The translations under genes and the position numbers were made by a program. Positions 25,927 through 60,257 of a DNA stretch of 64,000 nt are shown in pieces (the stretch's first letter is position 1; each line of letters opens with the position of its first letter). Location: the IMG/VR virus record IMGVR_UViG_3300045988_162372. One strand, given 5' to 3'. Origin of the DNA: a virus. The notes under the pieces are model-generated. The model did no database searches and was not told the origin of the DNA. It was given only the letters and a program-made list of their open reading frames with translations.

Positions 25927-25956
25927 CACTTAGTTAATATAAAATATAAATATAAT

Positions 25957-30083: not shown

Positions 30084-31130
30084 ATGGATAATAATAAAAC
30101 AAGTATTATATTTTTTGGTTCTGGGGATTTTCCTTACCCTACATTTAAGACCATTGTAGAGAATGAAGTTTATGATGTGAAAGGTTTGGTTACTTCTCCG
30201 TATAAGCCGTATTTTTATTCTGAGACATTGAAAGATGTAGCAGAAAGAAACAATATACCTGTGTTTTCAACACATAAGCCAAATTGTGCAGAGCTTGTCG
30301 AATGGTTGAAAGAAAAGGAAACCGACATTTTCTGTGTGATTTCTTATAAATTCCTTTCAAATGATATATTGAGAATTCCAAAGATAACAGCATTTAATGT
30401 ACACGCTTCATTACTGCCACTACTTCGAGGTGCTGCCCCTATTAACTGGGCAATCAGATATGGTTTTAAAAATACTGGTTTAACCTCATTTGTATTAAAT
30501 GAACATATTGATTGCGGAGAGATTATAAATAATATAAGTATCCCGATTGAAAGTAATGATGATTATGGTGTAGTTTTCAATAGATTATCTGTTCTTAATG
30601 TTGGCTTTACCATTGAAACAATATCACGTTTAAGAAAGTCTGATTGGAGACGTTATTTAATACTTCAACCAGATCATATTGAAGATGATATGTTCATGAA
30701 TGCTCCAAGATTGAATAATGATAATTGTACATTAAATACACATATATTTTCTGCATTTAATTATGCAATACCACAACTTTATGATGTGATTAGGTCGCTA
30801 TCACCAAATATAGGGTTAAATATTACATTAAGGGCAATGAATGAAGAAAGAAATGGTTTCTGTTGCCTTAAAAAATATGATGCCAAAATATATAAAGCTA
30901 AACTTTTTCCTGAGATACCAGAAGAACATAAAAGTTATTGCAAGAGTTATTCAAACGTGGTAACTGATGGTAAATCTTTCATGTACTTAGTTAATAATTT
31001 AAACACACAAATTATATCCATTGAAGAAATACAATTAGCAGGAAAGAAAAAACTTAATATAAAGGATTTTGTTGCAGGTTTTCAATGGGCAAGAGATAAA
31101 AATGTATATTTGCTAATAACTGGTAGATAA
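30084..31130 (+). CDS. methionyl-tRNA formyltransferase-like formyltransferase
   Basis: IIFFGSGDF..., NVHASLLPLLRGAAPINWAI, TGLTSFVLNEHIDCGEI match the Fmt N-terminal domain; C-terminal extension present. Confidence 0.75.
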   Translation: MDNNKTSIIFFGSGDFPYPTFKTIVENEVYDVKGLVTSPYKPYFYSETLKDVAERNNIPVFSTHKPNCAELVEWLKEKETDIFCVISYKFLSNDILRIPKITAFNVHASLLPLLRGAAPINWAIRYGFKNTGLTSFVLNEHIDCGEIINNISIPIESNDDYGVVFNRLSVLNVGFTIETISRLRKSDWRRYLILQPDHIEDDMFMNAPRLNNDNCTLNTHIFSAFNYAIPQLYDVIRSLSPNIGLNITLRAMNEERNGFCCLKKYDAKIYKAKLFPEIPEEHKSYCKSYSNVVTDGKSFMYLVNNLNTQIISIEEIQLAGKKKLNIKDFVAGFQWARDKNVYLLITGR

Positions 31131-31146
31131 CAAAAAACTTAAATAA

Positions 31147-32358
31147 ATGACATTAAATTTAACGTATAAAGGAAATAAATGGTTGAGTGGGGCAATTCCT
31201 GCTCTTTTGATACACTGCTGCATTGGCAGTGTATATTGTTGGTCTTTGATTAAGAACAACATCGCAATTGAAATGGGTGTGGCTTCTTCCCAAATTGAAT
31301 TTGCATTTTCATTGGCAATTTTCTTTTTGGGCATGAGTGCTGCGTTCTGTGGCAGATTCATCGAAAAGAACGTGAAGTATTCTTCACTTATTTCAGCGAT
31401 TTGCTTTACTTCTGGATTGTTCTTGACAACAGTTGCGATGCATTTGCATAGTATACCCTTGCTGTTCTTATCTTACGGATGTATCATGGGTATCGGATTG
31501 GGTATAGGCTATTTAAGTCCAGTCAAAACATTGATGTTATGGTTCAGCGAACATAAGGGCTTGGCAACTGGTATTGCTATTAGTGGCTTTGGATTATCAA
31601 AAGCAATTCTTTCACCATTCATTGAATGGTGTAATGCAAATTATTCCATTTATGTAACATTGTGGGCTATTTCATTGATAAGTATGTTCTGTATGTTATT
31701 GGCTTCAGCACTTATTAAAAAACCTGAAGGATGGGTGGAAACTACTGATAAATTTTCGATAAAGGATGTGTGGAAAATAATTACAAATTCAGAGTATATT
31801 AAGATATGGCTGATATTTTACATTAACATAACCTTGGGTTTATGTCTGATAAGTTTTGAGAAAGATTTATGTCTTACTAACGGCATAGTTGCTGTGGGCA
31901 TTATATCGTCATTAACGGCATTGTTCAATACTATTGGTAGATTTGGCTATTCTTCCTGTTCGGACTTTTTAAAACGTAAGGAAATAATCTATGTTATTAT
32001 ATTTGCAAGCAGTTTGATAGTATGCGCCATATATGGCTTAAATCTGATTAATATTGGGGTTGCAACAATACTATTGCTTTGCGTTATTAACGCAGGATAC
32101 GGTGGAGGGTTTTCTACTTTACCCACATTACTACAATCCAAATTCGGTATGGGGAATATCTCAACTATTCATGGTTTAGCATTAAGTGCTTGGGCGTGGG
32201 CTGGGCTTTCAGGAAATCAGTTATCTAATCTTGTGATTAATAGAATGGGATTAGGATATGAACACCTGATAACAATAGTTGCTTGTTTATATTGCATTAG
32301 CTTGATAATTACATTAACTATCAAAAATAAAATATGGAAAATAAAGAGAAACAATTAA
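31147..32358 (+). CDS. MFS transporter (oxalate/formate antiporter-like)
   Basis: 403 aa, about 12 hydrophobic helices; N-terminal GSVYCWS motif typical of OFA/YhjX-type MFS. Confidence 0.75.
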   Translation: MTLNLTYKGNKWLSGAIPALLIHCCIGSVYCWSLIKNNIAIEMGVASSQIEFAFSLAIFFLGMSAAFCGRFIEKNVKYSSLISAICFTSGLFLTTVAMHLHSIPLLFLSYGCIMGIGLGIGYLSPVKTLMLWFSEHKGLATGIAISGFGLSKAILSPFIEWCNANYSIYVTLWAISLISMFCMLLASALIKKPEGWVETTDKFSIKDVWKIITNSEYIKIWLIFYINITLGLCLISFEKDLCLTNGIVAVGIISSLTALFNTIGRFGYSSCSDFLKRKEIIYVIIFASSLIVCAIYGLNLINIGVATILLLCVINAGYGGGFSTLPTLLQSKFGMGNISTIHGLALSAWAWAGLSGNQLSNLVINRMGLGYEHLITIVACLYCISLIITLTIKNKIWKIKRNN

Positions 32359-35360: not shown

Positions 35361-35885
35361 ATGCATCCGATAGTAGAATATATCAAGAATAGTTGGAAAG
35401 AACATAGGAATAATTCTGATAAAAAAAATACCTTTGCAGTCAATAGATACATATTCCCTCAAATAGTAGATATGCTATCTGATTGCAAAGATATTGCTTT
35501 CATTTCCATTGGTGAGACAAAAGATTGCATTGAATATAATAAGTTTGAGGATTATGGGCATTATCTTAAAGATAGTAAAAACGTATTGAATATTGACTTT
35601 GATGATTTAGAATGCGATTTTACTTTTGAAGGATACAACTTTAAAGCAATTACTGACGAACAAGCAGTACAGATATATGATTTTCTCATGAAACATTCGG
35701 ATAAACATATTATCTGTCATTGCAGGGCAGGAAAGAGCAGAAGTGCAGCAATTTCAGAGTTTCTTTTGCAGATGTTTTCTGACAAATATGAAGAATGTGA
35801 AGCGAACAGAATAAATAGTGATAAAACTCCAAACGGAGAAGTATTAAGAAAATTAAAAAGAATATATTATGAATACCCAAACTAA
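35361..35885 (+). CDS. cysteine phosphatase (PTP/dual-specificity or RNA 5'-phosphatase type)
   Basis: HCX5R(S/T) signature ICHCRAGKSRS. Confidence 0.75.
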   Translation: MHPIVEYIKNSWKEHRNNSDKKNTFAVNRYIFPQIVDMLSDCKDIAFISIGETKDCIEYNKFEDYGHYLKDSKNVLNIDFDDLECDFTFEGYNFKAITDEQAVQIYDFLMKHSDKHIICHCRAGKSRSAAISEFLLQMFSDKYEECEANRINSDKTPNGEVLRKLKRIYYEYPN

Positions 35886-36045
35886 AAGAAAAACTTTATA
35901 TACAGCTTATAATAATTTATACAAGTATTGCAAACGATTAGCTTTAAAGGTTTCAGATACATTTAGAAAAAGAGCTATAGAATGTTTGCATAAGATGTCT
36001 GATGAACAAATAAATGAACTATATAAACAATATAAAGAAAAATGA
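35869..36045 (+). CDS. hypothetical small protein (58 aa, below ORF-track cutoff)
   Basis: hand-translated MNTQTKRKTLYTAY...YKQYKEK; ATGA overlap with next gene. Confidence 0.4.
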   Translation: MNTQTKRKTLYTAYNNLYKYCKRLALKVSDTFRKRAIECLHKMSDEQINELYKQYKEK

Positions 36046-36686
36046 CAACTCAACAGATATGGTTCACTTCGGATATCCACGCCTTCCATAAAAACATCCT
36101 AAAACATTGTCCTGAACGGCAAAAGATATGTGGAGCAAAAGATGAAAACGATGTCGAAGCATGGGATAAGTGGATGATTGAGAAATGGAATTCTACCATT
36201 TCCAAGAAAGATATGGTGTATATTCTTGGAGATTTTGCCTTCGGCTCTCCTGAAAGTGTAAGAAAACTTTTGGATAAATTACACGGAAAGAAATTCCTTA
36301 TTCTTGGCAACCATGACAAATCTTCTGAACATCTTGATAATTATTTCGTGCAAATAACCCAACAGAAATTGGTAACATTTAAGAAGTCTAACTTTGATTT
36401 TCTTGACGAGGACTTTCAAGTATTTATGTGCCATTATCCGATGGTTACTTGGGCAAGTAAACATTATGGTGTGATAAATGCACATGGTCACTGTCATGGA
36501 AGATTGGATGATTATAATGAAGCATCAACAGATTTACGTGTAGATGTTGGAATTGATGGAAAACTTGCAAATTTCAAGTTCATTACCCTTGAACAAATAT
36601 ATAGGTATTTCAAAGAGAAAACCAAAGGAGAGAAGTTTATCCACTATGCGATGGAGAAGAAAAACGAGAACTTAATGGTGATATAA
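36042..36686 (+). CDS. calcineurin-like metallophosphoesterase
   Basis: FTSDIHAFH, ILGDF, LGNHD, AHGHCHG motifs. Confidence 0.8.
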   Translation: MTTQQIWFTSDIHAFHKNILKHCPERQKICGAKDENDVEAWDKWMIEKWNSTISKKDMVYILGDFAFGSPESVRKLLDKLHGKKFLILGNHDKSSEHLDNYFVQITQQKLVTFKKSNFDFLDEDFQVFMCHYPMVTWASKHYGVINAHGHCHGRLDDYNEASTDLRVDVGIDGKLANFKFITLEQIYRYFKEKTKGEKFIHYAMEKKNENLMVI

Positions 36687-39790: not shown

Positions 39791-41122
39791 ATGAAATTTG
39801 TAGAATTATTTGATAACGATATGAAACCAAAGTGGGATATAATAGAAAACATCCCACAGTTTGCAGCACTTAAGACAACCAAGCAAAGCAATACTTGGCA
39901 TAAAGAGGGTGATGCTCTTAGGCATACACGGCTTGTTGTTGAAAATATGCAAAGAGAATTGGATGAACAGAATATTGACAATCATTCTGCATATTATCTT
40001 GTAATGATGTCTGCCGCACTTTGTCATGACTTAGGCAAGGCAACTTCAACCAAATGGGATAAAGAGAAGAATGACTATGTATGTAATCATCATGGACAAG
40101 CAGGTGAGAATATTACCCGTATGTTGTTTTATGATGAGAAATTTATCATAAGGGAACTTGTATGCTATATGGTACGTTGGCATATGAATTTACATCATAT
40201 CTTGGATGATGAGGAAAAAGTTGATGAGAAACTGATAAATATGGCTCACGGATGGGTATCAATTCAAGATATGTTACTTCTCAACAAATGTGATTCTCTT
40301 GGAAGCCAGAATGACATTGAAACAAGAGAATTCCTTGAGAACAGATGGGATACCATTAAGGAAAGAGCAGAGAAGTTGGATGTATTTGATATGGTCTATG
40401 ATGATTATAATACGAAACATATATGTGAAAATCTGAATACTGCCCTAAATGCATCTAATCCAATTGCTCCATTTTCATTTATGACACTAAATTGGAGGGA
40501 TGTGCGAGAGTCTTGTAGTAATATATTGAGGCATACTCCTATAAATTGGAAAACAAATAATATAAAGATATTAAATCAATTCACTGTCTTTATGATGGTA
40601 GGTATTCCTGGAAGTGGTAAAGATACTATTATACGAAAATACTTAAATGATATTCCAACTGTATGTAGAGATGATATCCGCACTGAAATAGGTATTCAAG
40701 GAGAGAAGCCTATGGGTAATAAAGAACAGGAGAAGAAAGTGACTCAAATATTCGAGGAAAGAATGTTGGAATATTGCAAACAAGGTAAGAGTTTTGTTAT
40801 TAATAATACAAACCTTAAAAAGCAATACCGTAACAGATTCTTGGATATCATAAAGCCTTATAAACCAGTCGTGATTTATATTTATGTGGAAGCTCCGTCA
40901 ATAGTTGATAATTTTGCAAGACGTGCTGGACAAATAGATAAGGATATAATACGCAGGATGGCTTCAAACTTTGATTTCCCTTATCCTACGGAATATACTA
41001 CTTTGTGGCTCGATATACAAGGTGAACCACAATTCACTGAAATATATGGTAACGCAATGATGAGTCATATAATTCAAGATATGATGCAACCAAGAAAGAA
41101 GAAAGATGAACAAGAACATTAA
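39791..41122 (+). CDS. HD-Pnk: HD phosphoesterase fused to P-loop polynucleotide 5'-kinase
   Basis: N-terminal H..(ALRHTRLV)..CHDLGKA..HHG HD domain; C-terminal MMVGIPGSGKDT Walker A, CRDDIR, NNTNL; same architecture as bacterial HD-Pnk end-healing enzymes. Confidence 0.8.
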   Translation: MKFVELFDNDMKPKWDIIENIPQFAALKTTKQSNTWHKEGDALRHTRLVVENMQRELDEQNIDNHSAYYLVMMSAALCHDLGKATSTKWDKEKNDYVCNHHGQAGENITRMLFYDEKFIIRELVCYMVRWHMNLHHILDDEEKVDEKLINMAHGWVSIQDMLLLNKCDSLGSQNDIETREFLENRWDTIKERAEKLDVFDMVYDDYNTKHICENLNTALNASNPIAPFSFMTLNWRDVRESCSNILRHTPINWKTNNIKILNQFTVFMMVGIPGSGKDTIIRKYLNDIPTVCRDDIRTEIGIQGEKPMGNKEQEKKVTQIFEERMLEYCKQGKSFVINNTNLKKQYRNRFLDIIKPYKPVVIYIYVEAPSIVDNFARRAGQIDKDIIRRMASNFDFPYPTEYTTLWLDIQGEPQFTEIYGNAMMSHIIQDMMQPRKKKDEQEH

Positions 41123-41369
41123 TCTATTTGGTGAGGACATCACTAAAGAAATCGAAGCAGAGGAAAGGAAACATAAATATTCAGAAAGGGCTAAGAAAGC
41201 GGCCGAAACAAGGAAAAGACATAAGGCTGAACAAGAAGCCCTTTTTGATAAAATGTTCACCATTGCGAGAAGTGAATGTGATTTATTTGGTAATAAATAT
41301 ACCGACGAGGAAAGAAAAGAAGCTGAGAAATATATTAGGGAAAACTTTAAAAAAAGAAATAAGAAATGA
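41106..41369 (+). CDS. hypothetical Lys/Glu-rich protein
   Basis: 87-aa ORF. Confidence 0.5.
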   Translation: MNKNINLFGEDITKEIEAEERKHKYSERAKKAAETRKRHKAEQEALFDKMFTIARSECDLFGNKYTDEERKEAEKYIRENFKKRNKK

Positions 41370-41785
41370 TAGTATCAGAAGAATTTTTGCTTGAGAAATT
41401 AAAAGGATACAAACAGAAAACTTGGTCAGGACATTGGACTAACAAGGGAAACATCCACTTTATTTTGTGGAATTTGTTAGGAATATTCAACGGACATTAT
41501 AATGTGGTTGTTAATCCAGAAACCTTTGAATATCGAGTTAAAAAGCATAGTGAATATGGTAATCTTGTTTCATACCTACCAACACAAGAAACAACCGTTT
41601 GGACAAAAGAAAATATGTCACAAGAACAAATAGATTATATTGAGCCTTGTATTGCCAAAACTTTGTATGATTTGCTATACCCTTCGATTTTTTCTTATAA
41701 TACAAAAGAAGGTTATTCCCAATGGTTATCCAATCTTCTTGTGGATGATGATACGTTTGAATTTACCTGGAAATGGCGAGAATAA
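41366..41785 (+). CDS. hypothetical protein
   Basis: 139-aa ORF, ATGA overlap. Confidence 0.55.
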   Translation: MIVSEEFLLEKLKGYKQKTWSGHWTNKGNIHFILWNLLGIFNGHYNVVVNPETFEYRVKKHSEYGNLVSYLPTQETTVWTKENMSQEQIDYIEPCIAKTLYDLLYPSIFSYNTKEGYSQWLSNLLVDDDTFEFTWKWRE

Positions 41786-41802
41786 ATTAAAAAATATAAA
41801 AT

Positions 41803-42489
41803 ATGGAATATACTCTTGAAACAAGTTCAGAAACTTTTATTAATAAAATAAAAAAATTTCTTCATTATGGAAACATAATGATAGATTTGGAAACATTGTC
41901 TACCAGAACCAATGCATCCATAATAAGCGTTGCTGCCGTAGAATTTGGATTAAATGGTGATACTGGCAGGGAAATGATATTAAAAATCAAACCATCAGAA
42001 TGGGGAAAATATGATAGACATATTGATGGTAATACAATCGCATGGTGGATGGGACAAGATGCAGAGGCTGTTAAAAACCTTTTTGCAAAGGACGGGGAAG
42101 ATTTCACGTTGCTTGATGCCTTATCTCATTTGTCTGATTTTGTAAAAGAATGTGATATGCCTATACCAATTACGCAAGAACAAGAAATGACTGCCAGTTT
42201 TATGAGCAGTTTCAGATACAGTGATGTAAAAGACAAAAGGATTAAAGTATGGGGAAATGGTTCTACAATGGATATTACAATTCTTCAATCTGCTTATGAG
42301 TATTTCAATATGCAGATACCGTGGCAATATTGGGCTGTAAATGATGTGCGTACTATTGTGGATTTAAACCCTGAAATTAAAAAGAACTGTACTTTTGAAG
42401 GTGTGAAACATAATCCTATTGACGATTGTAATTATCAGATTAAATATATGACTGAAACAATTAAAAATATTAGAGAAAATAGATATTAA
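41803..42489 (+). CDS. DEDDh 3'-5' exonuclease (Rv2179c-like exoribonuclease type)
   Basis: MIDLETLS (DxE), WGNGSTMDITIL (D), HNPIDDCNYQ (H-x4-D). Confidence 0.75.
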   Translation: MEYTLETSSETFINKIKKFLHYGNIMIDLETLSTRTNASIISVAAVEFGLNGDTGREMILKIKPSEWGKYDRHIDGNTIAWWMGQDAEAVKNLFAKDGEDFTLLDALSHLSDFVKECDMPIPITQEQEMTASFMSSFRYSDVKDKRIKVWGNGSTMDITILQSAYEYFNMQIPWQYWAVNDVRTIVDLNPEIKKNCTFEGVKHNPIDDCNYQIKYMTETIKNIRENRY

Positions 42490-42545
42490 TTTTTTTTACA
42501 AAAATTATATGTTGAAAATATTTTCGCATTAAAAAATTTAAAAAT

Positions 42546-42983
42546 ATGGCACTTTTGAAACTTATAGTTTATGCATTGTTAATTTGTACTGGGGTAATAG
42601 GGTTAATTTGCTTCGGATACTATTTATTATTCATCTTAAAAACTAATTTCGCAGAAACAAGAAAATATTTGGATCAATTTCCTGATAAATTTAAAAATTA
42701 TACTGATGAATATCATTCTTATTGTAATGGTGATATTCTAATACACTTATATGATAATAGGGATACAAAACGTTTGTACAATAGATATACAGTTACGATT
42801 GAATATAATTTATTGGGTTACATTATATATAATGATGCTATTAATATAATACGAGTACCGTATCCGTTTTTCAAAAAGGAAAGAAAGTGGCTTAATAATT
42901 TATTTAGACAAAAATATGAAAGAGTTAAAAAGCAAGAGATGAAAGAAATGAACAAATTAATAGAAGTAATGAAAAATAATTAG
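42546..42983 (+). CDS. membrane-anchored protein
   Basis: 145 aa, N-terminal helix. Confidence 0.55.
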   Translation: MALLKLIVYALLICTGVIGLICFGYYLLFILKTNFAETRKYLDQFPDKFKNYTDEYHSYCNGDILIHLYDNRDTKRLYNRYTVTIEYNLLGYIIYNDAINIIRVPYPFFKKERKWLNNLFRQKYERVKKQEMKEMNKLIEVMKNN

Positions 42984-42987
42984 AAAT

Positions 42988-43215
42988 ATGGAAAAGAAAG
43001 AACTAAACGAACACAATGAGTGTTATTATTGCAAACTCATGTACCGTATTCCTGGTGATGCGCATATTGGTTGTAAGAAGTTTTGTGAAGGTAATAAATT
43101 TAATGCACATGGCATTAGATGTGGATGGGTCGTAATTATGCCGATGCTTGACCTTTGCAATTTTGATCCTGTGTGGAAAGAAACCATGTGTCCGAATTTT
43201 GAAGAAAATAAATAA
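42988..43215 (+). CDS. hypothetical Cys-rich protein
   Basis: 75-aa ORF with seven Cys. Confidence 0.5.
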   Translation: MEKKELNEHNECYYCKLMYRIPGDAHIGCKKFCEGNKFNAHGIRCGWVVIMPMLDLCNFDPVWKETMCPNFEENK

Positions 43216-43235
43216 AACATTAAAATCATACAAAC

Positions 43236-43826
43236 ATGAAAAAGTTAAAAGAATGTTATAATTTGTATATTAACGAATGTATTGATAAAGATGCACTTAA
43301 AAGTCTGAATGAAGATATTATCAAGTATACAACGGAGATTGAGGAGATTTTATGTGAAAATGAGAATGAATTAAGAAGTTGTGGATATCCTATTCCAGAT
43401 AGAAATAATGTCACTAAACCTATTTTCTATCTTCACATAAATACTTTTGGCGGTTCTGTATATGACGGTCTTGGAATATACAACATCATCAGGAAATTGT
43501 CAGAAGATTATAAAGTCATCGCCTATTGTCGTGGCTATATCATGTCTATGGGTATTCCTATTATCCTTGCTGCGACAGAACGTTATTCATACCCTGATAC
43601 CACGTTTATGATACATGAAATAAGTAGTTTCTATTGGGGGAAATTGACTGAGGCAAAAGAAAACCTGCAAGAAATTGAACGTCTAAACAAAGCTATATGT
43701 GATATTATTGTTAGACACACTTCAATTACACAAGATATGTTGGATGATTGGTATAAACATAAGAAAGATGTGTTTATGTCGGCACAACAAGCACTTGATT
43801 ATAAGTTGATTGATAAAATACTCTAA
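43236..43826 (+). CDS. clpP: ClpP-like serine protease (S14)
   Basis: HINTFGGSVYDGLGIYNII, GYIMSMGIPIILAA (Ser), TFMIHE (His). Confidence 0.75.
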   Translation: MKKLKECYNLYINECIDKDALKSLNEDIIKYTTEIEEILCENENELRSCGYPIPDRNNVTKPIFYLHINTFGGSVYDGLGIYNIIRKLSEDYKVIAYCRGYIMSMGIPIILAATERYSYPDTTFMIHEISSFYWGKLTEAKENLQEIERLNKAICDIIVRHTSITQDMLDDWYKHKKDVFMSAQQALDYKLIDKIL

Positions 43827-43854
43827 TCAGTTATATTTTTTTAACGAAATATAT

Positions 43855-43885
43855 TTTGGTATAATTCTCTAATGTTGTACATTTG
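43855..43885 (+). promoter_or_regulatory. Bacteroidota-type promoter (-33/-7)
   Basis: TTTG-N19-TACATTTG upstream of ATG 43922. Confidence 0.6.
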
Positions 43886-43921
43886 CAATGTGAATAATAA
43901 AATACATATTGTAAATTAAAA

Positions 43922-44161
43922 ATGGAAAACAATGTTAGAGAATTTTTGGTATTGGAAGGTTATACAAATGATTTGTTGATGATAAATTCTTCAGGCTCAA
44001 TGAAAATGACAAGACTTATCAAGCTTGACCCAAACAATAAAGAATTGGATGAAGAAATTGTGGATATTGCTGTTACATCAACAAATGAATATGGAACGCA
44101 TCCGTTATTTGATGAGTTGCTTGGAAAGAAAATAAGATTAAAGGTAGAAATTTTGAAATAA
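43922..44161 (+). CDS. hypothetical protein
   Basis: 79-aa ORF after promoter. Confidence 0.5.
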   Translation: MENNVREFLVLEGYTNDLLMINSSGSMKMTRLIKLDPNNKELDEEIVDIAVTSTNEYGTHPLFDELLGKKIRLKVEILK

Positions 44162-44176
44162 TAAAAAGAGAATTGA

Positions 44177-45043
44177 ATGGCAATAAACCTTTTAAAAATT
44201 AACGCAGAAGCCGTACTATGTACGGGTGATTTGCATGGAAACCTGAATAGCATTGGATACCAGATTAAACAGTTTGGTATCCAAAATTCAGTTCTGATAT
44301 GTTGTGGGGATATTGGATTAGGCTTTAATAAGTTGGAATATTATAAACAATACTTGAATAAGTTGAAGAAGGTATTGACCAAATATAATGATTATGTCAT
44401 TCTTCTTAGGGGTAATCATGATGATAAGGCGTATTTCGACAATAAGCTCATTAATGATAAAAGGATTAAGGCGGTTTCTGATTATACAATAGTGCAGGTA
44501 TATCCTATGGATGATACAGAATGCCTTTCTCTTCCATACAATGTGTTATGTGTCGGTGGAGCTACCTCAATTGACAGAATGCACAGAATTAGTGTAAACA
44601 ACAAACTGTTGATGGAATATTCCAAACATCATAATATGGAAACTTTGGAGGAAGCAAAAAAGAATTGTCTGAAATGTTATTGGGAAGACGAAGCACCTGT
44701 ATATGATGAAGAGACACTGAATGAGATTAAGGAACAAGGAATTACCATTGATGCTGTAACAACACATACTTGTCCATCTTTCTGTCAACCATTGACTAAG
44801 GATGGCATTCGATATTGGATGCAGTTTGACACTAATCTTGAAAAAGATATTGACAATGAACGCAACGTGATGGATAAACTTTATGATAAGTTGATAGAGG
44901 ATAAACACCCATTATCTGTATGGTGTTATGGCCATTATCATTATCATCATAATGACAGTATTAATGGAATAAGATATTACCTCCTTGATATGGAGAGAAA
45001 TGGAAAGATGGATATAATAACGATATATAAAAGTGGAAAATAA
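44177..45043 (+). CDS. calcineurin-like metallophosphoesterase (lambda-PPase-like)
   Basis: CTGDLHGN, CCGDIGLGF, LRGNHDD, GHYHYHH. Confidence 0.8.
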   Translation: MAINLLKINAEAVLCTGDLHGNLNSIGYQIKQFGIQNSVLICCGDIGLGFNKLEYYKQYLNKLKKVLTKYNDYVILLRGNHDDKAYFDNKLINDKRIKAVSDYTIVQVYPMDDTECLSLPYNVLCVGGATSIDRMHRISVNNKLLMEYSKHHNMETLEEAKKNCLKCYWEDEAPVYDEETLNEIKEQGITIDAVTTHTCPSFCQPLTKDGIRYWMQFDTNLEKDIDNERNVMDKLYDKLIEDKHPLSVWCYGHYHYHHNDSINGIRYYLLDMERNGKMDIITIYKSGK

Positions 45044-45347
45044 GATAGATTATAAAGAACAAATATTTCAGTTAAAGCATTTGCATCAACAAACAGGACA
45101 AGTAATTGATAAAATGTCGTTGTTGGAAATAGATGCAGAACATATGTATGCAAGAAACATTCTTTATCTATTATTTTCAATAATGAGGAAGAATTTGAAT
45201 ACATTGGATGAGTTTTTGCAAATACTAAATGACATAGAACATGAACAAGAGGAAGGACATAAACTTATCAAACGAATATACTCTAAAACTTGGTTCGCAA
45301 ATTCTTCTGGGATAGAAATTTCAAATGATAACGAGACAAAAACTTAA
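45033..45347 (+). CDS. hypothetical protein (GTG start uncertain)
   Basis: 104-aa ORF; alternative ATG at 45114. Confidence 0.4.
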   Translation: MENKIDYKEQIFQLKHLHQQTGQVIDKMSLLEIDAEHMYARNILYLLFSIMRKNLNTLDEFLQILNDIEHEQEEGHKLIKRIYSKTWFANSSGIEISNDNETKT

Positions 45348-45353
45348 TATATA

Positions 45354-45887
45354 ATGAAAGGAATAATTGCAATAAAAAATATATCGGATGTAATCACAAA
45401 TTCTTCAAGCGAAGTGTTTATGTTACAAACTGATGGTGTCATTAAAGGTATTAAAAATAACATTGAAAAATATCACAATGAACATATGTGGTATCACAAC
45501 GATTTTTCTGAACTTCCTGATGATATTAAACAGCTATTAGGCGGTGAGGATATTTTAAATGAAGCGGAAAAAATGCTCAATGAATCTTCTGGCGAAGGTG
45601 GAGAAATTAACATTTATGATTGGGAGGACGCATATAACGGATATTGCAAAATATACAAAAAACATTCCAAGAGTTTCACACCCGAACAGTGGGCAAAAAA
45701 AATTGATATACCATTGGAAGAATTGAAGAAAATCATTGTGGTTGATGTGGATTGGGCAGCTAAAAGTACTATCTCCATGTTAAAAGAACGTTATAATGTT
45801 GTCTTTGAAGGAGATATTTATTACGAATCAAAATATAGTGATGCCTTTGCGTATGCTTCCTATGCTAACGGAGAAAACTATCTATAA
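45354..45887 (+). CDS. ITNSSSE-motif family protein, copy 1
   Basis: N-terminus MKGIIAIKNISDVITNSSSEVFML; C-terminal IIVVDVDW. Confidence 0.6.
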   Translation: MKGIIAIKNISDVITNSSSEVFMLQTDGVIKGIKNNIEKYHNEHMWYHNDFSELPDDIKQLLGGEDILNEAEKMLNESSGEGGEINIYDWEDAYNGYCKIYKKHSKSFTPEQWAKKIDIPLEELKKIIVVDVDWAAKSTISMLKERYNVVFEGDIYYESKYSDAFAYASYANGENYL

Positions 45888-45896
45888 CAAAAATTT

Positions 45897-46580
45897 TTGA
45901 ATATGAAACACTACGATTCTATTCCAAGTATCAAAGAGGACAAATCTTTGGTCGGAGAAAATATTTTTGCTTTTAATAAATTGGACGGACAAAACTTCTG
46001 TGCAAAATATTCTCCAAAAGTGAATGAATTTACAATGTTTGGCAGTAGAACACAAAATGTGGATGAAACTTCCGAACAATTCGGAGATGCTGTTAGATAT
46101 TTCAAAGCTAACTTGGAGACACCGTTGAAAGAAGTTATTAAAAATAACAAAGGGAAAAATCAAATCTTTCATGGTATTGAAGAGATAACATTTTTCTTTG
46201 AATGGTATGGTGAGCATAGTTTTGCTGGTTTTCATCAGCCTAATGAAACATTAAAACTTGCATTAATAGATGTTTTTTTGAAAAAGAAAGGTTATATTGA
46301 GCCTAAAATATTTGTTGATATATTCTATGATAATCCATCAATAGAAACACCATTATTGGTATATAGTGGAAAATTGACAAATGATTTCATAAAGGCAATT
46401 CAAGAAAATGACTATACAGAAGCAAATTGTAACTTAAATGAGGTAAAAGAAGGCGTTGTCTGCAAACGTTCAACACTTCTGAAAGGGCAAAGACTTCCAA
46501 TGGTAAAGATTAAAACACAATGGTGGCTTGATAAATTGCATAGCACATTCTCAGAAGAACAATGCAAGAAATTAGAATAA
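45897..46580 (+). CDS. Rnl2-like RNA ligase nucleotidyltransferase
   Basis: motif I FNKLDGQN, III FFFEWYGEHSFAG, IV LALIDVF, V EGVVCK, then VKIKT. Confidence 0.7.
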   Translation: MNMKHYDSIPSIKEDKSLVGENIFAFNKLDGQNFCAKYSPKVNEFTMFGSRTQNVDETSEQFGDAVRYFKANLETPLKEVIKNNKGKNQIFHGIEEITFFFEWYGEHSFAGFHQPNETLKLALIDVFLKKKGYIEPKIFVDIFYDNPSIETPLLVYSGKLTNDFIKAIQENDYTEANCNLNEVKEGVVCKRSTLLKGQRLPMVKIKTQWWLDKLHSTFSEEQCKKLE

Positions 46581-46622
46581 GATAATAAAAAGGATTTATT
46601 AACAATTAAAATTGAATATAAT

Positions 46623-48167
46623 ATGACAAAAGAAATTTTCACGCTGTCAGAAAATGCGAAACTGGAATATTCTTGTACAGTAGTTCAAATTGGGGAAGTA
46701 AAACCTGTTGAAGGTTCAGACTTTCTTGGTTCAACACTAGTAAATGGTAATCCTATAGTTGTGCGCAAAGACCAAATCAAGGAGGGTGATATAATGATAT
46801 ATGCCCCTATTGAAACTGTGCTTAACAAACAATTTCTCTCTGTAAACAACCTATTTGAAATTGGAGAAAAAGAACTGAATTCAAATTTTAAGGAAGTTCA
46901 AGCACTTATCAATGAGGGAAAGAAAGAAGATGCTAAGAAAAAGGTGGGCTTCTTTAATAAGCATGGTCGTGTGAAGCTTATCCGCTTGCGTGGGTGTCCG
47001 TCTATGGGTTTCCTTATTGAAAAGGAGTCACTTGTAAAGTGGAAACCTAAGTTGCAGGACGTTGATTTCTCTCAATACGTGGATAAGGACTTTGATACCA
47101 TTGATGGGGAACTCTTTGTCAAGGTATATGTGCCTTATGTACCACCTATAAGAACAAGGGATAAATCAGCAAAACGAGACAAGAAATTAAAAAGATTTTC
47201 AAGACTTATTGAAGGTGAATTTAAGTTTCATTACGATACACAACAACTTGCTCGTAACATTCATCTGATTAAGCCAGATGATAAAGTGTTAATAACCAAC
47301 AAATTACATGGCACGAGCTTCATTTGCGCTAACATATTGACAAAGAAACCTGTTCAGCTTTCCAACATTCAAAAGCTCTTTAACAAGATGTCTAATAAAA
47401 AGATTAAGAAGTTAAAAAAGCAGAATGCTACTCACTATGCAGATAAGAAAAGATTGGAAAATCAAATCAAGCAGTATGAAAAGATTAAGAGACCTACATA
47501 TACTGTCGGATATGGTAATATCTATTCTTCTCATACTGTCATTAAAAATCAGTATATTAATAGTGGTGTAAATAGTGGCTTCTATGGAGTGGATATTTGG
47601 GGAGTATACGATAAGATTATGAAACCTTATATTCCACAAGGTATGACGTTGTATGGCGAAATCTGCGGTTATCTTGACGCTACTGGCAAGATGATACAGA
47701 AGGGTTACGACTATGGCTGCAAAGTAGGCGAAAATTTTTTGATGCCGTATCGTATCACCACTACAAAAGAAGACCATACTAAGAAGGAATGGACTGTGAA
47801 AGAGGTATATGATTGGACTGTCAAACTCTTGAAAGAACATCCTGAATTAAAAAAGAATGTAAGACCTATTACAATTCTTTACAGTGGTACATTAAAGGAC
47901 TTGTATCCAGAAATTAGTGTTTCTGATCATTGGCATGAGAATGTTCTTGAAACTATGAGAAATGATAAGGAACATTTCGGAATGGAAGAGCTTGAACCTG
48001 AATGTATCAATAAAGTTCCGAGAGAAGGAATTGTCTTGAGAATTATGGAAGACCCTGTGGCTGAGGCATTTAAGTTGAAGAGTTTCCGCTTTCTTGACAG
48101 AGAGAGGTCTGAAATGGACAAGGGACAAGTTGATATGGAAATGGCTGATGCCTACACTGAACAATAA
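46623..48167 (+). CDS. RNA ligase with N-terminal OB-like domain (Rnl5-like architecture)
   Basis: N-terminal VVQIGEVKPVEGSDFLGSTLVNGNPIVV (OB/tRNA-binding-like); motif I TNKLHGTSF, III TLYGEICGY, V EGIVLRI..FKLKS. Confidence 0.7.
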   Translation: MTKEIFTLSENAKLEYSCTVVQIGEVKPVEGSDFLGSTLVNGNPIVVRKDQIKEGDIMIYAPIETVLNKQFLSVNNLFEIGEKELNSNFKEVQALINEGKKEDAKKKVGFFNKHGRVKLIRLRGCPSMGFLIEKESLVKWKPKLQDVDFSQYVDKDFDTIDGELFVKVYVPYVPPIRTRDKSAKRDKKLKRFSRLIEGEFKFHYDTQQLARNIHLIKPDDKVLITNKLHGTSFICANILTKKPVQLSNIQKLFNKMSNKKIKKLKKQNATHYADKKRLENQIKQYEKIKRPTYTVGYGNIYSSHTVIKNQYINSGVNSGFYGVDIWGVYDKIMKPYIPQGMTLYGEICGYLDATGKMIQKGYDYGCKVGENFLMPYRITTTKEDHTKKEWTVKEVYDWTVKLLKEHPELKKNVRPITILYSGTLKDLYPEISVSDHWHENVLETMRNDKEHFGMEELEPECINKVPREGIVLRIMEDPVAEAFKLKSFRFLDRERSEMDKGQVDMEMADAYTEQ

Positions 48168-48230: not shown

Positions 48231-48740
48231 ATGAAGAAAATTAACATTAAATCATTGACGGACGTGATTACAAACTCTTCGACAGAGATATTCACAATCT
48301 ATAATAAAGAGGCTGTTAATAAAATCAAACAGATGGTTAATTCTATACTTGCGCTGAGTGACGCTACTTCTAATCTGACATTCGATGACTTGTTTGAGGT
48401 TGATTATCGTCTTTACGATTATGGAACGGGAGAACTTATCATAAATCTTGTAGAAAAACTGAAAGAAAAAGGCTATATAGAACATGCAGAAGCTATCAAT
48501 GCTACCGTTACAACGGAAGAAGAATTGTGGAACTATTCCAAACAAAACAATATCTATGATGTTGTTATGGAAATTATCGAAAAAATTGATGATGATAATT
48601 ACGACGATTACCGTATAATAGATGGTATTCATATCAAAGCCAAAAATAATCCTAATGTGGATAAAGCAAAACTTGACAAGGCGGTTGATATGCTTAATAA
48701 CATCGACCACATCTTTGAACAATACGCTTCTTATTGCTAA
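48231..48740 (+). CDS. ITNSSSE-motif family protein, copy 2
   Basis: N-terminus MKKINIKSLTDVITNSSTEIFTI. Confidence 0.6.
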   Translation: MKKINIKSLTDVITNSSTEIFTIYNKEAVNKIKQMVNSILALSDATSNLTFDDLFEVDYRLYDYGTGELIINLVEKLKEKGYIEHAEAINATVTTEEELWNYSKQNNIYDVVMEIIEKIDDDNYDDYRIIDGIHIKAKNNPNVDKAKLDKAVDMLNNIDHIFEQYASYC

Positions 48741-48841: not shown

Positions 48842-48882
48842 ACGTCAAATATTTGCATATGTCAGATATTTGACGTATTTTT
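48842..48882 (+). terminator. hairpin with T tail (terminator or operator)
   Basis: ACGTCAAATAT / ATATTTGACGT 11-bp stem, 13-nt loop, then ATTTTT. Confidence 0.5.
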
Positions 48883-53448: not shown

Positions 53449-53961
53449 ATGACACAAATTATTAAAAATACAGAGCTAATCACCTCATTAATTAAACAAG
53501 TAATCGAACACGAAGGTACTGGTGATAAGATATATAATTATTATGCTAATGTTTGCCGCTTAGTACCAGATAAAGTAATAATGGTAGATGACTTTACCGA
53601 ATTATTATATCCTATTTATTATCAAAAAGTTGCTGATGATTTGAATTTGCATAATAAAAAATGTTTCATCAGCATCCCTATTACAGGTGTTGAAGAACAA
53701 GCAAGAGAAGAATGTAAAAAGGTGCAAAAACTATTCTCTGAATATTTGACAGATTGTGAAGTATTCTCACCATTTGAAGTTGCTCCTGAAAAGAATATGC
53801 CTGATTCCTATTATATGGGTAAAGATATTGAACAACTTATGAATTGTAATATTATGATACAAATGAACGGATGGGAAAATAGTAAAGGATGTAGAGTAGA
53901 GAATTTCGTTGCAGATACTTATAACATTGAAAAGATTCCTGTTGATAGTTTGTTTATTTAA
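53449..53961 (+). CDS. DUF4406 / nucleoside-deoxyribosyltransferase-like domain protein
   Basis: C-terminal half KKCFISIPITG...VFSPFE...MNCNIMIQMNGWENSKGCRVENFVA matches the DUF4406 pattern (..cD.v..l.gW..S.G...E...A). Confidence 0.55.
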   Translation: MTQIIKNTELITSLIKQVIEHEGTGDKIYNYYANVCRLVPDKVIMVDDFTELLYPIYYQKVADDLNLHNKKCFISIPITGVEEQAREECKKVQKLFSEYLTDCEVFSPFEVAPEKNMPDSYYMGKDIEQLMNCNIMIQMNGWENSKGCRVENFVADTYNIEKIPVDSLFI

Positions 53962-57589: not shown

Positions 57590-58714
57590 TTATTTCACCA
57601 TTGCCGTCATTGCCGACTCAAGCTCTTTTTCAACCTTAATGATTTCTTCTTCCGTTGCTTTCCTATTTTTGGTTGCTTCCTCATGGATTGCTTGTACTTC
57701 TTTCAGCGTTTCGATGAGTCTTGCAGTAGTGGTACGCAGGGTTTCCACATCAACGACACTTCTTTCACTTTCTTTAGCAACATATATACTGTTTTGTTTC
57801 AAAAGTTCAGAATTCTTCAAAAGAATTTGATTAGTAGTATCACTGATTTTCTTCTGTGCATCAATGTTATTCTTCTGATTGTTCAACGCAACAGCAATTG
57901 ATAGCTGGTTTCTCCACACTGGAATTGTTGTGGAAATAATGCTTTGAGCTTTGTCTGCAACTGAAAGATTGTTATACTGTACAGTTCTAATCTGTGGAAG
58001 TGATTGTTTGATGACATATCTAAGTGTAAACATATCATTCAAACGCCTTTCAAGATTATTCTTGAACACTTGTGTATCTTGTATCTCAGTGGCAGTATAT
58101 TTGTCAGGATTCTGTTCCATATCTTGAATGGAACTTTCTAATTCTTCTACCTTTATCTTTCCTGCGATGATAAGTTCCTCAATCTGTTGACCATATAGAA
58201 TATTATTATCGAACATAACCTGCAAGGCATTATTATCACGTAAAGCAAGCATTCGCATTGCAGTAATCTTCTTGGATATTTCATCCACGTTCTGTGCAAT
58301 GCTGTCATATTTCTTCATTATCTTTTCAACTGATTTTACTAAATTCTTCAAAATAGGTATTCTACTGAGGAATTTCTTGATAGGTGATATATCCTCAAAA
58401 TCATCAAGCTCAACATAGCCAAGTTCAGTAAGTAAGTTGTCCACCAATGTGCCGATTTCTCCACACTTTGATGTCCTTACAGCATTCAAGAAATCATTGG
58501 AATACTTCGTCATAGAAGTCTGCAAATCAGAGCCAAAACTTGATACCGAGTTAATGTCTTTGACGACAAGACAAGAATTCAATCTGTTATATTTAGCTTT
58601 TTCCTCTTCTGTTAAGTTTGCAAGATTAATCTCTCCGTTCTCGCTTACTCTTTTTACCAATGCATTAGTAACTATTTTCTCTTTGTTTTCGATATTGTTG
58701 TTGTTATTTTCCAT
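57590..58714 (-). CDS. telA: TelA-like (toxic anion resistance family) protein
   Basis: 374 aa; SSFGSDLQTSMTKYSNDFLNAVRTSKCGEIGTLVDNLL and long coiled regions as in TelA/KlaA proteins. Confidence 0.7.
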   Translation of the reverse strand: MENNNNNIENKEKIVTNALVKRVSENGEINLANLTEEEKAKYNRLNSCLVVKDINSVSSFGSDLQTSMTKYSNDFLNAVRTSKCGEIGTLVDNLLTELGYVELDDFEDISPIKKFLSRIPILKNLVKSVEKIMKKYDSIAQNVDEISKKITAMRMLALRDNNALQVMFDNNILYGQQIEELIIAGKIKVEELESSIQDMEQNPDKYTATEIQDTQVFKNNLERRLNDMFTLRYVIKQSLPQIRTVQYNNLSVADKAQSIISTTIPVWRNQLSIAVALNNQKNNIDAQKKISDTTNQILLKNSELLKQNSIYVAKESERSVVDVETLRTTTARLIETLKEVQAIHEEATKNRKATEEEIIKVEKELESAMTAMVK

Positions 58715-58828: not shown

Positions 58829-59347
58829 TTAGAATGGCAAATCATCATCGCTATCACCATTAACCAAAGGAATCTTCAAGCCTGAATTATCGACAACAGC
58901 TTGTTGCTCAGGTGTCAACATCTTAGTCTGTGTTTTTGGAATTTCCACTTCACTTGTTTGCTTTGAAGCGGATACTGGTGCTGCTTGTGATGTTTGATTT
59001 CCGTTTCCATCATTATTCCTATTGCTTGACTCTGAGAAATAAATCATTTCTGCACGGATATTTCTTCCAACCTCACAATTACCAGTGATTTTATTAGGAT
59101 AAACATTATCTGAATATTCCCCGATCACATTAATAGGTCTTCCCTTAGTCAGATACTTCTGAATGTTCATACCTTGTGTTGTAAAACAAGTTACTGAAAA
59201 CCAATAAGTGATAGGATTTCCTTGTTCATCCTTTGCATCACCAAACTCGTTATTTGCCATACGGAAGTGAATGTATTCCCTTCCCGATTGTGTAGTTTTC
59301 TTAACAGCGTCAGAAACAACTCTTCCGCTGAGTGTCATAATTCTCAT
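58829..59347 (-). CDS. ssb: single-stranded DNA-binding protein
   Basis: N-terminal OB-fold pattern (LSGRVVSDAV..., WFSVTCF) and canonical acidic tip DDDLPF. Confidence 0.9.
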   Translation of the reverse strand: MRIMTLSGRVVSDAVKKTTQSGREYIHFRMANNEFGDAKDEQGNPITYWFSVTCFTTQGMNIQKYLTKGRPINVIGEYSDNVYPNKITGNCEVGRNIRAEMIYFSESSNRNNDGNGNQTSQAAPVSASKQTSEVEIPKTQTKMLTPEQQAVVDNSGLKIPLVNGDSDDDLPF

Positions 59348-59459: not shown

Positions 59460-60257
59460 TTATTTTCTGATTATATCCAATAGCTTTTCCCTGTTATATT
59501 CGTCATTCAATACAAAAGCATCATGCTCAGTCCATATATTCCTTATATATGTCAAGTTCAATTCTTCATTGACTTGTCTAACTTCTTCCTTGTATATAAA
59601 ACGTCCATATTTCTTCCCATCTGAAAAATCAGTATTCCAGTCAATACCTTTCTTTTCTTTTAGAAGTGCAATCTGTTCATCAGTATTCAAATTGAGAAGT
59701 TCTTTATGGGAAAGATATGTTTGTGCTGCCTGTTGTTTTGAATTTTTAATGCAGTCATTCTGTCTATAGAGACACCACGCAAACATATCGTTTTCGTTTG
59801 GTACATTCCAAGCCTTGCAATCAAATTCAACAAGTTTCTGGCCTTCTACCATCTGTATCATATCACTTTGTGAACAAGGCGTATTCAATAAATCCATTGT
59901 TACCATATGATTGAACTTTGATGCTGCCATAGCTGCTGCGATTGACTGCAATTTGCATAAGCGATATCCGAAGAACGTATCAGTTGTTGGTGTGTCAAAA
60001 TCAGATAATGCCATAGTAATTTCATCTGATTGCACATACGCAAATTTGCATCCGCCAATATTCTTGCAAAGATACTTGGCGGTTTCATTCATATAATGAA
60101 TAAACTTGTTATCAAATGGTTTTTCATACTTATTTTTAATCAATTTTGAGAATGCTCTTCCGTCAAGCATCATTATTACATACTGATTAGGCACAAGCCT
60201 ATAATCTGACAAACTCCTATAATATAAACATTTATCTTCTAGATTCTTAAAATTCAT
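59460..60257 (-). CDS. Thg1-like protein (tRNA-His guanylyltransferase family, 3'-5' polymerase)
   Basis: YVIMMLDGRAFSKL, KPFD, AYVQSDEITMAL match the Thg1/TLP palm motifs. Confidence 0.8.
   Translation of the reverse strand: MNFKNLEDKCLYYRSLSDYRLVPNQYVIMMLDGRAFSKLIKNKYEKPFDNKFIHYMNETAKYLCKNIGGCKFAYVQSDEITMALSDFDTPTTDTFFGYRLCKLQSIAAAMAASKFNHMVTMDLLNTPCSQSDMIQMVEGQKLVEFDCKAWNVPNENDMFAWCLYRQNDCIKNSKQQAAQTYLSHKELLNLNTDEQIALLKEKKGIDWNTDFSDGKKYGRFIYKEEVRQVNEELNLTYIRNIWTEHDAFVLNDEYNREKLLDIIRK

Follow-up and report, generated by a model that had tools for sequence, protein, structure and literature searches.

A probable RNA break-repair kit with three predicted RNA ligases in an uncultured gut jumbo phage

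A set of genes predicted to heal and seal broken RNA lies dispersed over a 64,000-nucleotide stretch of viral DNA (IMG/VR record IMGVR_UViG_3300045988_162372), which is called the window below. The set comprises three RNA-ligase-family proteins (LigA, LigB, and LigC), an enzyme that joins an HD phosphoesterase to a polynucleotide kinase (HD-Pnk), a zinc-ribbon/2H phosphoesterase, and a Thg1-like protein. The genes are present with their catalytic residues intact, the modeled folds of LigB and LigC are closest to those of RNA ligases, and the same genes recur as neighbors in related phages and, for some of them, in bacteria. We consider it rather probable that they make up an RNA break-repair kit, whose likeliest use would be to mend RNAs cut by the defenses of the host. 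The window itself appears to be part of the accessory (“conflict”) arm of an uncultured gut jumbo phage of about 313 kb that is related to the Lak megaphages.

A sequence-only reading of the window had singled out ten open reading frames (ORFs) by eye, namely those just listed together with an exonuclease, two metallophosphoesterases (MPE1 and MPE2), and a cysteine phosphatase. All ten exist where it placed them, nine of the ten score above the Pfam gathering cut-offs, the PHROGs families agree, and almost all of the domain calls are correct. Its claim of an unusually large repertoire holds in part: the three ligases, HD-Pnk, the 2H protein, and the Thg1-like protein are solid members, whereas the four other genes have no demonstrated role on RNA.

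Three predicted RNA ligases

By their sequences, LigA, LigB, and LigC appear to be ATP-dependent members of the RNA ligase family with intact catalytic motifs I, III, IIIa, IV, and V, and the lysine of motif I is invariant in the family alignments of all three. LigA (24313-24975, + strand; Pfam RNA_ligase, 106.8 bits against a cut-off of 27, 1.8e-30) has 220 amino acids and consists of a nucleotidyltransferase domain alone. Its invariant residues in an alignment of 30 diverse homologs (A4) are K43-x-D45-G46, E96, E175-G176, and K196-x-V198-R199. Searches of the PDB with the single protein were mostly uninformative. With the family profile, all matches below E 0.01 are RNA ligases, namely the nucleotidyltransferase domain of the Naegleria Rnl5 enzyme (8e-5) and a tRNA ligase (3e-4), and the match to the Rnl1 family (PF09511) stays below threshold. 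In other organisms, LigA-type domains are fused within large proteins to PTP-SAK, 2H-SAK, kinase, and HNH domains, and the kinase region of these fused relatives matches tRNA_lig_kinase. LigA is of the ligase type whose gene adjoins that of HD-Pnk in many bacteria, an arrangement known from the Runella-type cassette.

LigB (45903-46580, + strand; Pfam RNA_ligase, 32.3 bits against 27, 1.3e-7; phrog_548) is a minimal enzyme. The sequence-only reading had started it at TTG 45897; the ORF is real, but both the way this gene is called in the source contig and the lengths of LigB homologs indicate that translation likely begins at ATG 45903, giving 225 amino acids. The AlphaFold2 model (pLDDT 91) has a single nucleotidyltransferase domain that ends shortly past motif V, and the family alignment (A1) keeps K26 (within NKLDGQN), E100, E183-G184-V185-V186, and K202-x-K204 invariant. 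Sequence searches of the PDB gave no match with the single protein and no relevant match with the family profile, so that fold prediction was needed. The top Foldseek matches are TbREL1 (6e-8) and T4 Rnl2 (8e-8), ahead of Rnl1, Rnl5, and Rnl3, and the best DNA ligases come in at about 4e-5 or weaker. The description of LigB as Rnl2-like thus stands as a resemblance, and not as membership: by TM-score the RNA ligase families cannot be told apart, the values being 0.58-0.62 for REL1 and T4 Rnl2 and 0.59-0.63 for the Naegleria ligase NgrRnl, and LigB has no counterpart of the Rnl2-type C-terminal domain that the 5'-adenylylation step requires in Rnl2. Its comparison to T4 Rnl2 by hhalign gives E 0.16. 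None of the hhalign and BLASTP comparisons of LigA and LigB with T4 Rnl2 and with each other is significant, which indicates that LigA is no close paralog of LigB, and that neither is near T4 Rnl2 in sequence. The LigB clade appears to be common to the Lak megaphages.

LigC (46623-48167, + strand) is set apart from both by its architecture. It has 514 amino acids, with an N-terminal OB domain (PF21189, residues 19-69) and a C-terminal nucleotidyltransferase domain (RNA_ligase, residues 340-477). In Pfam it matches the PHA02142 OB family at 28.8 bits (cut-off 27) and RNA_ligase at 26.6, just below 27, and in PHROGs phrog_968 “RNA ligase” (1.7e-37). The order of OB domain and then nucleotidyltransferase is that of Rnl5 (NgrRnl of Naegleria gruberi and DraRnl of Deinococcus radiodurans), and as in the Rnl5 domain plan there is no C-terminal accessory domain. 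Foldseek aligns the AlphaFold2 model (pLDDT 85) with the entire Naegleria RNA ligase, which is the reference structure for Rnl5 (E 1.6e-14; TM 0.64-0.66, target-normalized). The runner-up family, at 3e-6, is eight orders of magnitude weaker, and a capping enzyme reaches only E 0.24. This bears out the Rnl5-like architecture that had been read from the sequence. The best NCBIfam match is to TIGR02306 (the DRB0094 family; 2e-9, residues 22-236), with 36.7 bits against a cut-off of 151.15. In contrast to NgrRnl, which has 340 amino acids, LigC carries extra elements and a helical insertion of about 55 residues after motif I that varies between lineages. LigC is thus Rnl5-like in architecture and enlarged by insertions, and its low TIGR02306 score speaks against calling it an equivalog. 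Motif I reads KLHGTS and resembles that of T4 Rnl2, which is KxHGxN; the invariant residues are K227-x-H229-G230, E346, E468-G469, and K484-x-K486 (alignment A2).

Some near-identical alleles of LigC (up to 97% identity; P0144, P0145, P0183, and P0235) are called as fragments of 320-322 amino acids with an intein-splicing domain. These fragments open with an intein C-terminus (...IHN) followed by TS..., which places an intein within motif I of those variants (KLHG|TS, between G230 and T231).

End healing and 5'-end rebuilding

HD-Pnk (39791-41122, + strand) has an N-terminal HD phosphoesterase domain (about residues 37-168; Pfam HD, 28.5 bits against 22) and a C-terminal P-loop 5'-OH polynucleotide kinase domain (about residues 266-400; AAA_33, 55 bits against 27, 1.4e-14; phrog_505 “polynucleotide kinase”, 5e-20). 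The HD domain is nearest to that of CCA-adding enzymes (NCBIfam PRK10885, 1.7e-8). Across 21 homologs (alignment A3), H45, H79, D80, and D168 are invariant in the HD domain, and so are G271-x2-G274-x-G276-K277, R293-D294-x2-R297, and R377-R378 in the kinase; H37, H101, H131, and H135 are kept in at least 90% of the sequences. The loss of essential residues that would have counted against the sequence-only reading is therefore not seen, neither in the HD dyad (H79-D80) nor at the Walker A lysine (K277), and HD-Pnk is predicted to be an end-healing enzyme. At residue 278 the Walker A motif of the phage clade reads GSGKD, with Asp in place of the expected Ser or Thr; distant homologs have Ser, Thr, Asn, or Ala at this position.

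The second healing enzyme (8432-9157, + strand) combines a four-cysteine zinc ribbon (CPEC...CKVC) with a small 2H domain, whose motifs H145-C-T and H206-I-T are kept in four 2H-bearing homologs from related phage loci. It is a predicted 2',3'-cyclic phosphodiesterase. The Thg1-like protein (59460-60257, - strand; Pfam Thg1, 88.4 bits against 29.2, 4.8e-25) has as its best solved relative the Thg1-like protein (TLP) of Bacillus thuringiensis (4kgk; 1e-24, residues 8-225), and its carboxylate motifs D32-G and S77-D78-E79 are invariant in its relatives. It appears to be of the bacterial TLP type, a putative template-dependent 3'-5' polymerase able to rebuild 5'-truncated tRNA. General annotation of the 64 kb found no RtcB, CCA-adding enzyme, RlaP, KptA, or Macro domain, and no Tpt1, MTase-HIT genes, or splicing endonuclease were seen in the window.

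The 2H and Thg1-like proteins also allow another reading, in which the enzymes process the phage's own RNAs as a matter of housekeeping: tRNA exon halves would be joined once an endonuclease had cut out the intron, and the Thg1-like protein would supply or mend the 5' terminus (G-1) on the phage's tRNA-His. Lak phages have up to 35 tRNAs, some of them with conserved introns, along with a suppressor tRNA and genetic code 15 (Devoto et al., bioRxiv 10.1101/356790). In Pfam, the 2H domain scores highest against the CPD domain of the fungal tRNA-splicing ligase (tRNA_lig_CPD, 29.4 bits against 23, 7e-7, residues 145-225), tRNA_lig_kinase is matched in the fused relatives of LigA, and the Thg1 family is by origin one of tRNA-His maturation enzymes. 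Yet ARAGORN detects no tRNA gene in the window and a single one in 20 loci (the flanks of the window and related phages), and no splicing endonuclease was seen in the window. The Thg1 homolog is closest to the B. thuringiensis enzyme, which is associated with 5'-end repair rather than with G-1 addition. The introns of bacterial and phage tRNAs usually belong to group I and splice themselves without the help of a ligase, and the pair of LigA and HD-Pnk occurs in many bacteria without intron-containing tRNAs. We therefore regard a housekeeping role as unlikely, and prefer the repair of breaks inflicted by the host.

Recurrent neighborhoods in phages and bacteria

The linkage of these genes was followed in 40 IMG/VR loci (contigs of 23-554 kb) centered on LigB homologs, taking 10 kb on either side and searching with every window protein. 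Within this distance of LigB, HD-Pnk is found in 13 of the 40 loci, LigC in 12, MPE1 and the Thg1-like protein in six each, and LigA and the 2H protein in five each; a Nampt-family gene is present in 10 and an NMNAT-like gene in eight. As a rough estimate, a random gene in a genome of 300-550 kb would be expected in about 5% of loci. In seven loci LigB and LigC are immediate neighbors, and gene orders vary between lineages. A block running from HD-Pnk through a 79-amino acid ORF (o43922; 43922-44161, + strand) to MPE1, LigB, and LigC is kept in five loci (L021, L022, L026, L027, and L028). Homologs of o43922, which has no Pfam or PHROGs match, were detected by tblastn in five related loci at 44-46% identity, always immediately before MPE1. 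In two loci (L007 and L025), the first gene matched downstream of HD-Pnk is that of the 2H protein. Although the loci are not independent, an association that repeats through rearrangement argues for functional linkage.

The huge phage LR756500 and three Clostridia/Bacillota genomes carry a gene of the LigA type immediately upstream of HD-Pnk. The loci in which a ligase and HD-Pnk stand side by side include L045, L048-L050 (with the two ORFs overlapping in L050), and L034. Among the 80 best bacterial LigA loci, an HD-Pnk or kinase homolog adjoins the LigA-type ligase in 40; 14 of those 40 homologs are full length and directly beside the ligase, mostly just downstream of it, and these are mostly in Bacteroidota, including Cytophagales. 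A scan of bacterial genomes with an HD-Pnk pattern returned mostly the HD domains of CCA enzymes, and Runella was not among its matches. In the window the spacing is looser, with LigA 15 kb from HD-Pnk, and LigB and LigC 4.8 and 5.5 kb downstream of it.

The LigB-LigC pair is flanked by two weakly paralogous ORFs (45354-45887 and 48231-48740, both + strand), which have a common N-terminal DVITNSSxExF (BLASTP E 3e-5). Their proteins match nothing in Pfam or PHROGs and were not found in the related loci. Just 3' of the block formed by LigB, LigC, and the 48231 ORF, a 14-bp perfect hairpin with a T-run (48842-48876, + strand) is the sole strong terminator-like site between 38 and 49.5 kb, and it may mark the end of the LigB-LigC transcription unit.

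Genes with a doubtful place in the kit

The remaining four of the ten ORFs had been counted as members of the repair repertoire, and here the sequence-only reading went too far. The DEDDh 3'-5' exonuclease (41803-42489, + strand; Pfam Rv2179c-like, 144.5 bits against 27, 3.7e-42) had been taken for an exoribonuclease. It belongs with the T4 DexA/Rv2179c family: it aligns end to end with DexA, a DNA exonuclease (residues 24-221 of 228, 25% identity, E 3e-11), and its best PDB match is a 227-amino acid “exodeoxyribonuclease” (8kel). To judge from these relatives, DNA is at least as likely a substrate as RNA. For the cysteine phosphatase (35361-35885, + strand), no specific link to RNA repair was found. 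It has a canonical H-C-X5-R-S loop (HCRAGKSRS), its matches to PTP-SAK and DSPc are below threshold (DSPc at 18.7 bits against 33.5, which makes it the sole gene under its Pfam cut-off), its PHROGs family (phrog_5614, 2.5e-19) has no assigned function there, and it was not found near repair genes in the related phage loci. Its placement in the Swiss-army-knife PTP group was rejected, the similarity being confined to the catalytic P-loop.

Neither metallophosphoesterase has informative relatives in the PDB, the nearest solved protein to MPE2 being the uncharacterized aq_1665. MPE1 (44177-45043, + strand; Pfam Metallophos, 45.6 bits against 21.5, 1.5e-11; phrog_1649) has all five motifs of its family (GDLHG, GDIG, GNHD, H196, and GHYH), and is a candidate calcineurin-type 3'-end phosphoesterase by virtue of synteny only. 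MPE2 (36042-36686, + strand; Metallophos, 36.3 bits against 21.5, 1e-8; phrog_547, 1.7e-46) has the metal-binding motifs DIH, GDF, GNHD, and GHCH, and shows no specific link to RNA repair. Two loci (L008 and L044) have a distant homolog of MPE2, at 26-27% identity, just upstream of LigC.

It could then be that the repertoire is inflated, and that only one conventional pair of healing and sealing enzymes repairs RNA while the other genes have nothing to do with it. The exonuclease, like DexA, would break down host DNA, the metallophosphoesterases would destroy cyclic-nucleotide defense signals or dephosphorylate proteins, the cysteine phosphatase would act on proteins, and at least one ligase would serve replication by closing nicks in DNA or RNA-DNA hybrids. 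Such a division agrees with the alignment to DexA, with the assignment of phage calcineurin-like enzymes of the T5 A1 type to the degradation of nucleotide signals (Iyer et al., 2021, PMC7824862), and with a cysteine phosphatase that has neither a neighborhood nor a specific family link to repair. It is harder to reconcile with the way in which the three ligase families, HD-Pnk, the 2H protein, and the TLP recur together in relatives, and with the position of MPE1 in a conserved block directly upstream of LigB and LigC. As for the ligases, Rnl2- and Rnl5-type enzymes such as T4 Rnl2, DraRnl, and NgrRnl seal duplex nicks in which only the 3'-OH strand needs to be RNA, which favors a part in replication. 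Against it, RNA ligases outrank DNA ligases in the fold searches with LigB and LigC and lead the PDB profile search with LigA, so that the closest structures and best PDB matches are not the DNA ligases or capping enzymes that the sequence-only reading had named as a possible refutation. An inflated repertoire of this kind is unlikely, and a kit in which several enzymes cooperate on broken RNA remains our preferred explanation.

Proposed repair pathway

A pathway can be proposed for this kit. Ribonuclease defenses of the host, acting by transesterification, would cut tRNAs or other RNAs, leaving 2',3'-cyclic-phosphate and 5'-OH ends. The HD domain of HD-Pnk, the 2H protein, or both, and possibly MPE1, would open the cyclic phosphate and remove the phosphate from the 3' end. 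The kinase domain of HD-Pnk would then phosphorylate the 5'-OH, and one of the three ATP-dependent ligases would seal the break by way of a lysyl-AMP intermediate. Where a tRNA has lost nucleotides from its 5' end, the Thg1-like protein would refill them, using the 3' strand as a template. The ligases probably split the work according to the geometry of their substrates: LigC, by analogy with Rnl5, would seal nicks in duplex or stem regions, LigA would be the cognate partner of HD-Pnk, and LigB would be a second ligase of minimal build that accompanies LigC. Among interpretations of such a gene set, a countermeasure against host defenses that cleave RNA, as the sequence-only reading had proposed, is the standard and most plausible one, yet that reading overstated both its size and its novelty.

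Several points weigh against this pathway. The repair genes are spread over 52 kb and interleaved with ClpP, the DexA-like exonuclease, and unknown genes, which means that they do not form one operon. LigA and LigB have no accessory domain of any kind, and other roles may fall to the metallophosphoesterases, the exonuclease, and the cysteine phosphatase. The related loci lack phylogenetic independence, so that the co-occurrence counts make the case look stronger than it is. The scarcity of tRNA genes around the repair genes, which speaks against housekeeping, also weakens any direct tie to the tRNA genes of the phage. Finally, LigA may not act on a conventional break, because the ligase of the Runella cassette sealed none of the 3'-OH/5'-PO4 substrates on which it was tried.

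This last point deserves a closer look. The HD-Pnk of Runella slithyformis is a characterized 2',3'-phosphoesterase/5'-kinase, and the ligase gene that lies upstream of it and overlaps it encodes an enzyme that forms ligase-AMP and sealed no tested 3'-OH/5'-PO4 substrate (Munir et al., 2018, PMC6097658). HD-Pnk of the window has the same architecture, with HD preceding kinase, and a small ATP-dependent ligase of the LigA type stands upstream of its relatives in bacteria and huge phages. The two clusters differ in that LigA and HD-Pnk are far apart in the window, where no Tpt1 or MTase-HIT genes were found either, and in the Asp that follows the Walker lysine in the phage clade.

LigA, HD-Pnk, and the zinc-ribbon/2H protein might accordingly be a phage version of the bacterial LIG/HD-Pnk pathway, with a ligase that does not use ordinary 3'-OH/5'-PO4 ends, next to a separate and conventional route of nick sealing by LigB and LigC. 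In one variant, the 2H protein would open the cyclic phosphate to a 2'-phosphate, and LigA would seal only such 2'-PO4 ends. The mark left at the junction would either shield the RNA from being cut again or be removed with NAD+, which would tie the route to the adjacent genes for NAD+ salvage. Two points support such an unconventional ligation: the 2H domain resembles the CPD domain of the fungal tRNA ligase, and the Runella ligase did not seal standard ends. Counting against it, HD-Pnk removes such phosphates, and no Tpt1 was seen in the window. If the route did exist, the phage would counter different host nucleases with two repair pathways of distinct chemistry. We think it very unlikely, and continue to place LigA with the other ligases in the conventional healing and sealing of host-inflicted breaks.

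Genomic setting

The window covers roughly 204-268 kb of a metagenomic contig of 312,870 bp (ENA ERZ1314577 NODE_1). It is AT-rich (~31% GC) and, when read with the standard code, 93% coding. The + strand holds its genes up to about 54 kb and the - strand those beyond, and the sign of both coding strand and GC skew flips near 54-55 kb. Identical window proteins occur on at least 12-21 metagenomic contigs per exact-protein look-up, and in 8-9 index blocks each the longest contig that carries them measures 0.2-1 Mb. A near-identity DNA search of the 39791-48167 span, which runs from HD-Pnk to LigC, gave no match among 50,697 deposited phage records, leaving the phage without a close sequenced relative. 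Kinship with Lak is seen at the protein level, where LigB and the Thg1-like protein have 64% and 56% identity to Lak proteins; one LigB homolog is annotated in Lak_Megaphage_Sonny, and other relatives are from the Prevotella Lak lineage and other huge phages.

The window also contains genes for NAD+ salvage: a phosphoribosyltransferase of the NAPRTase/Nampt family (25897-27162, + strand), an adjoining ADP-ribosylglycohydrolase (27170-27979, + strand), and a cytidylyltransferase-like gene of the NMNAT type (61942-62550, - strand). The trio looks like a phage pathway that reconstitutes NAD+ against NAD+-depleting defenses. There are also an rIIA-like GHKL ATPase (10176-11791, + strand; 538 amino acids in the contig gene call) and, on the opposite strand, an N6/N4 DNA methyltransferase (12221-12973, - strand). 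Further to the right are a TelA-family protein (57590-58714, - strand; 2.8e-83) and a single-stranded DNA-binding protein (58829-59347, - strand). About 4.5-8.5 kb past the right end of the window (L003, 1-4018), the contig encodes a HAD_SAK_2 “Swiss-army-knife” phosphatase, an AAA_28 kinase-like protein, a YAcAr (SLOG) domain protein, a D12-class methyltransferase, and a reverse transcriptase. The NAD+ salvage genes, the rIIA-like ATPase, TelA, and, outside the window, HAD_SAK_2, YAcAr, and the reverse transcriptase are surroundings that fit an anti-defense island.

The window holds some other genes of note. A full-length TnpB/IS605 OrfB (3875-5095, + strand), with helix-turn-helix, OrfB_IS605, and Cas12f1-like TNB domains, has homologs in two related phage loci. 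A protein similar to methionyl-tRNA formyltransferase, with both the N- and the C-terminal formyltransferase domain (30084-31130, + strand), is directly followed by a Major Facilitator Superfamily transporter (31147-32358, + strand), an unusual gene for a phage. Two proteins resemble nucleoside 2-deoxyribosyltransferases (21079-21645, PF15891, 2e-25; and 53449-53961, DUF4406, 1.5e-8; both + strand), and they may take part in nucleotide salvage or in the processing of nucleotide signals. Eight small ORFs in the 39791-48167 span and two of its upstream neighbors have no match in Pfam or PHROGs. An Rfam scan returned nothing at gathering thresholds, and a scan for sigma-70 promoters, which leaves promoters of the Bacteroidales type outside its scope, found sites no more numerous than in shuffled sequence.

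Relation to known repair systems and significance

In phage T4, Pnkp and Rnl1 repair tRNA cut by the PrrC anticodon nuclease. The same logic of healing and then sealing that is found in T4 Pnkp and Rnl1 (and Rnl2) applies here, and the kinase of the window has a T4-Pnk-like RDDxR motif. Unlike T4, the window has no Rnl1-type ligase, its phosphatase is of the HD and not the HAD family, and LigB lacks the C-terminal domain of T4 Rnl2.

The sequence-only reading had placed the set well beyond the T4 paradigm. This claim of novelty does not hold, because comparable kits of jumbo phages have been published: up to three RNA ligases occur per genome, with XacN1 encoding three Rnl2 paralogs, and the ligases are accompanied by PNK, 2H, HAD, occasionally calcineurin-like and HD phosphatases, and sporadic Thg1, in opposition to tRNA-cleaving defenses (Iyer et al., 2021, Viruses 13:63, PMC7824862). 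The same authors proposed that the ligases are specialized for different RNase effectors. The window resembles these arsenals in its several ligases, its kinase, its 2H, HD, and calcineurin-like enzymes, its Thg1 protein, and the NAD+ salvage genes nearby, and phage XacN1 itself carries homologs of LigA (36%) and LigB (28%). It differs from them in its third ligase, which has the Rnl5-like OB and nucleotidyltransferase domains and is not RtcB or Rnl1, and in its healing by HD-Pnk in place of the usual PNK-HAD.

For the Lak phages, an RNA ligase for tRNA repair, a tRNA-His guanylyltransferase, and CCA-adding and peptidyl-tRNA functions have been described (Devoto et al., bioRxiv 10.1101/356790). 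Of the proteins treated here, Lak megaphages encode LigB and the Thg1-like protein at the identities given above, and LigC at 33%. By comparison, the genome of this phage is smaller (~313 kb vs. ~540-550 kb), and its full-length LigA and HD-Pnk were not found intact by tblastn in the deposited Lak genomes.

The idea behind the kit and most of its parts are thus already known, and multi-ligase kits of jumbo phages are established. What appears to be specific here is the combination, in one Lak-related phage, of a Runella-type LigA/HD-Pnk, an enlarged Rnl5-like ligase, a minimal Rnl2-like ligase, a zinc-ribbon/2H protein, and a TLP. It is a well-resolved example, in an uncultured lineage of gut megaphages, of how large phages stack RNA repair functions, and the conceptual gain is modest. 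The window does offer several enzymes for study: a phage HD-Pnk, a phage counterpart of the bacterial ligase associated with HD-Pnk, an enlarged Rnl5-like ligase, and the minimal ligase that is its companion. Their characterization could reveal RNA-targeting defenses in the Bacteroidales of the gut, as well as what the LIG/HD-Pnk cassette repairs.

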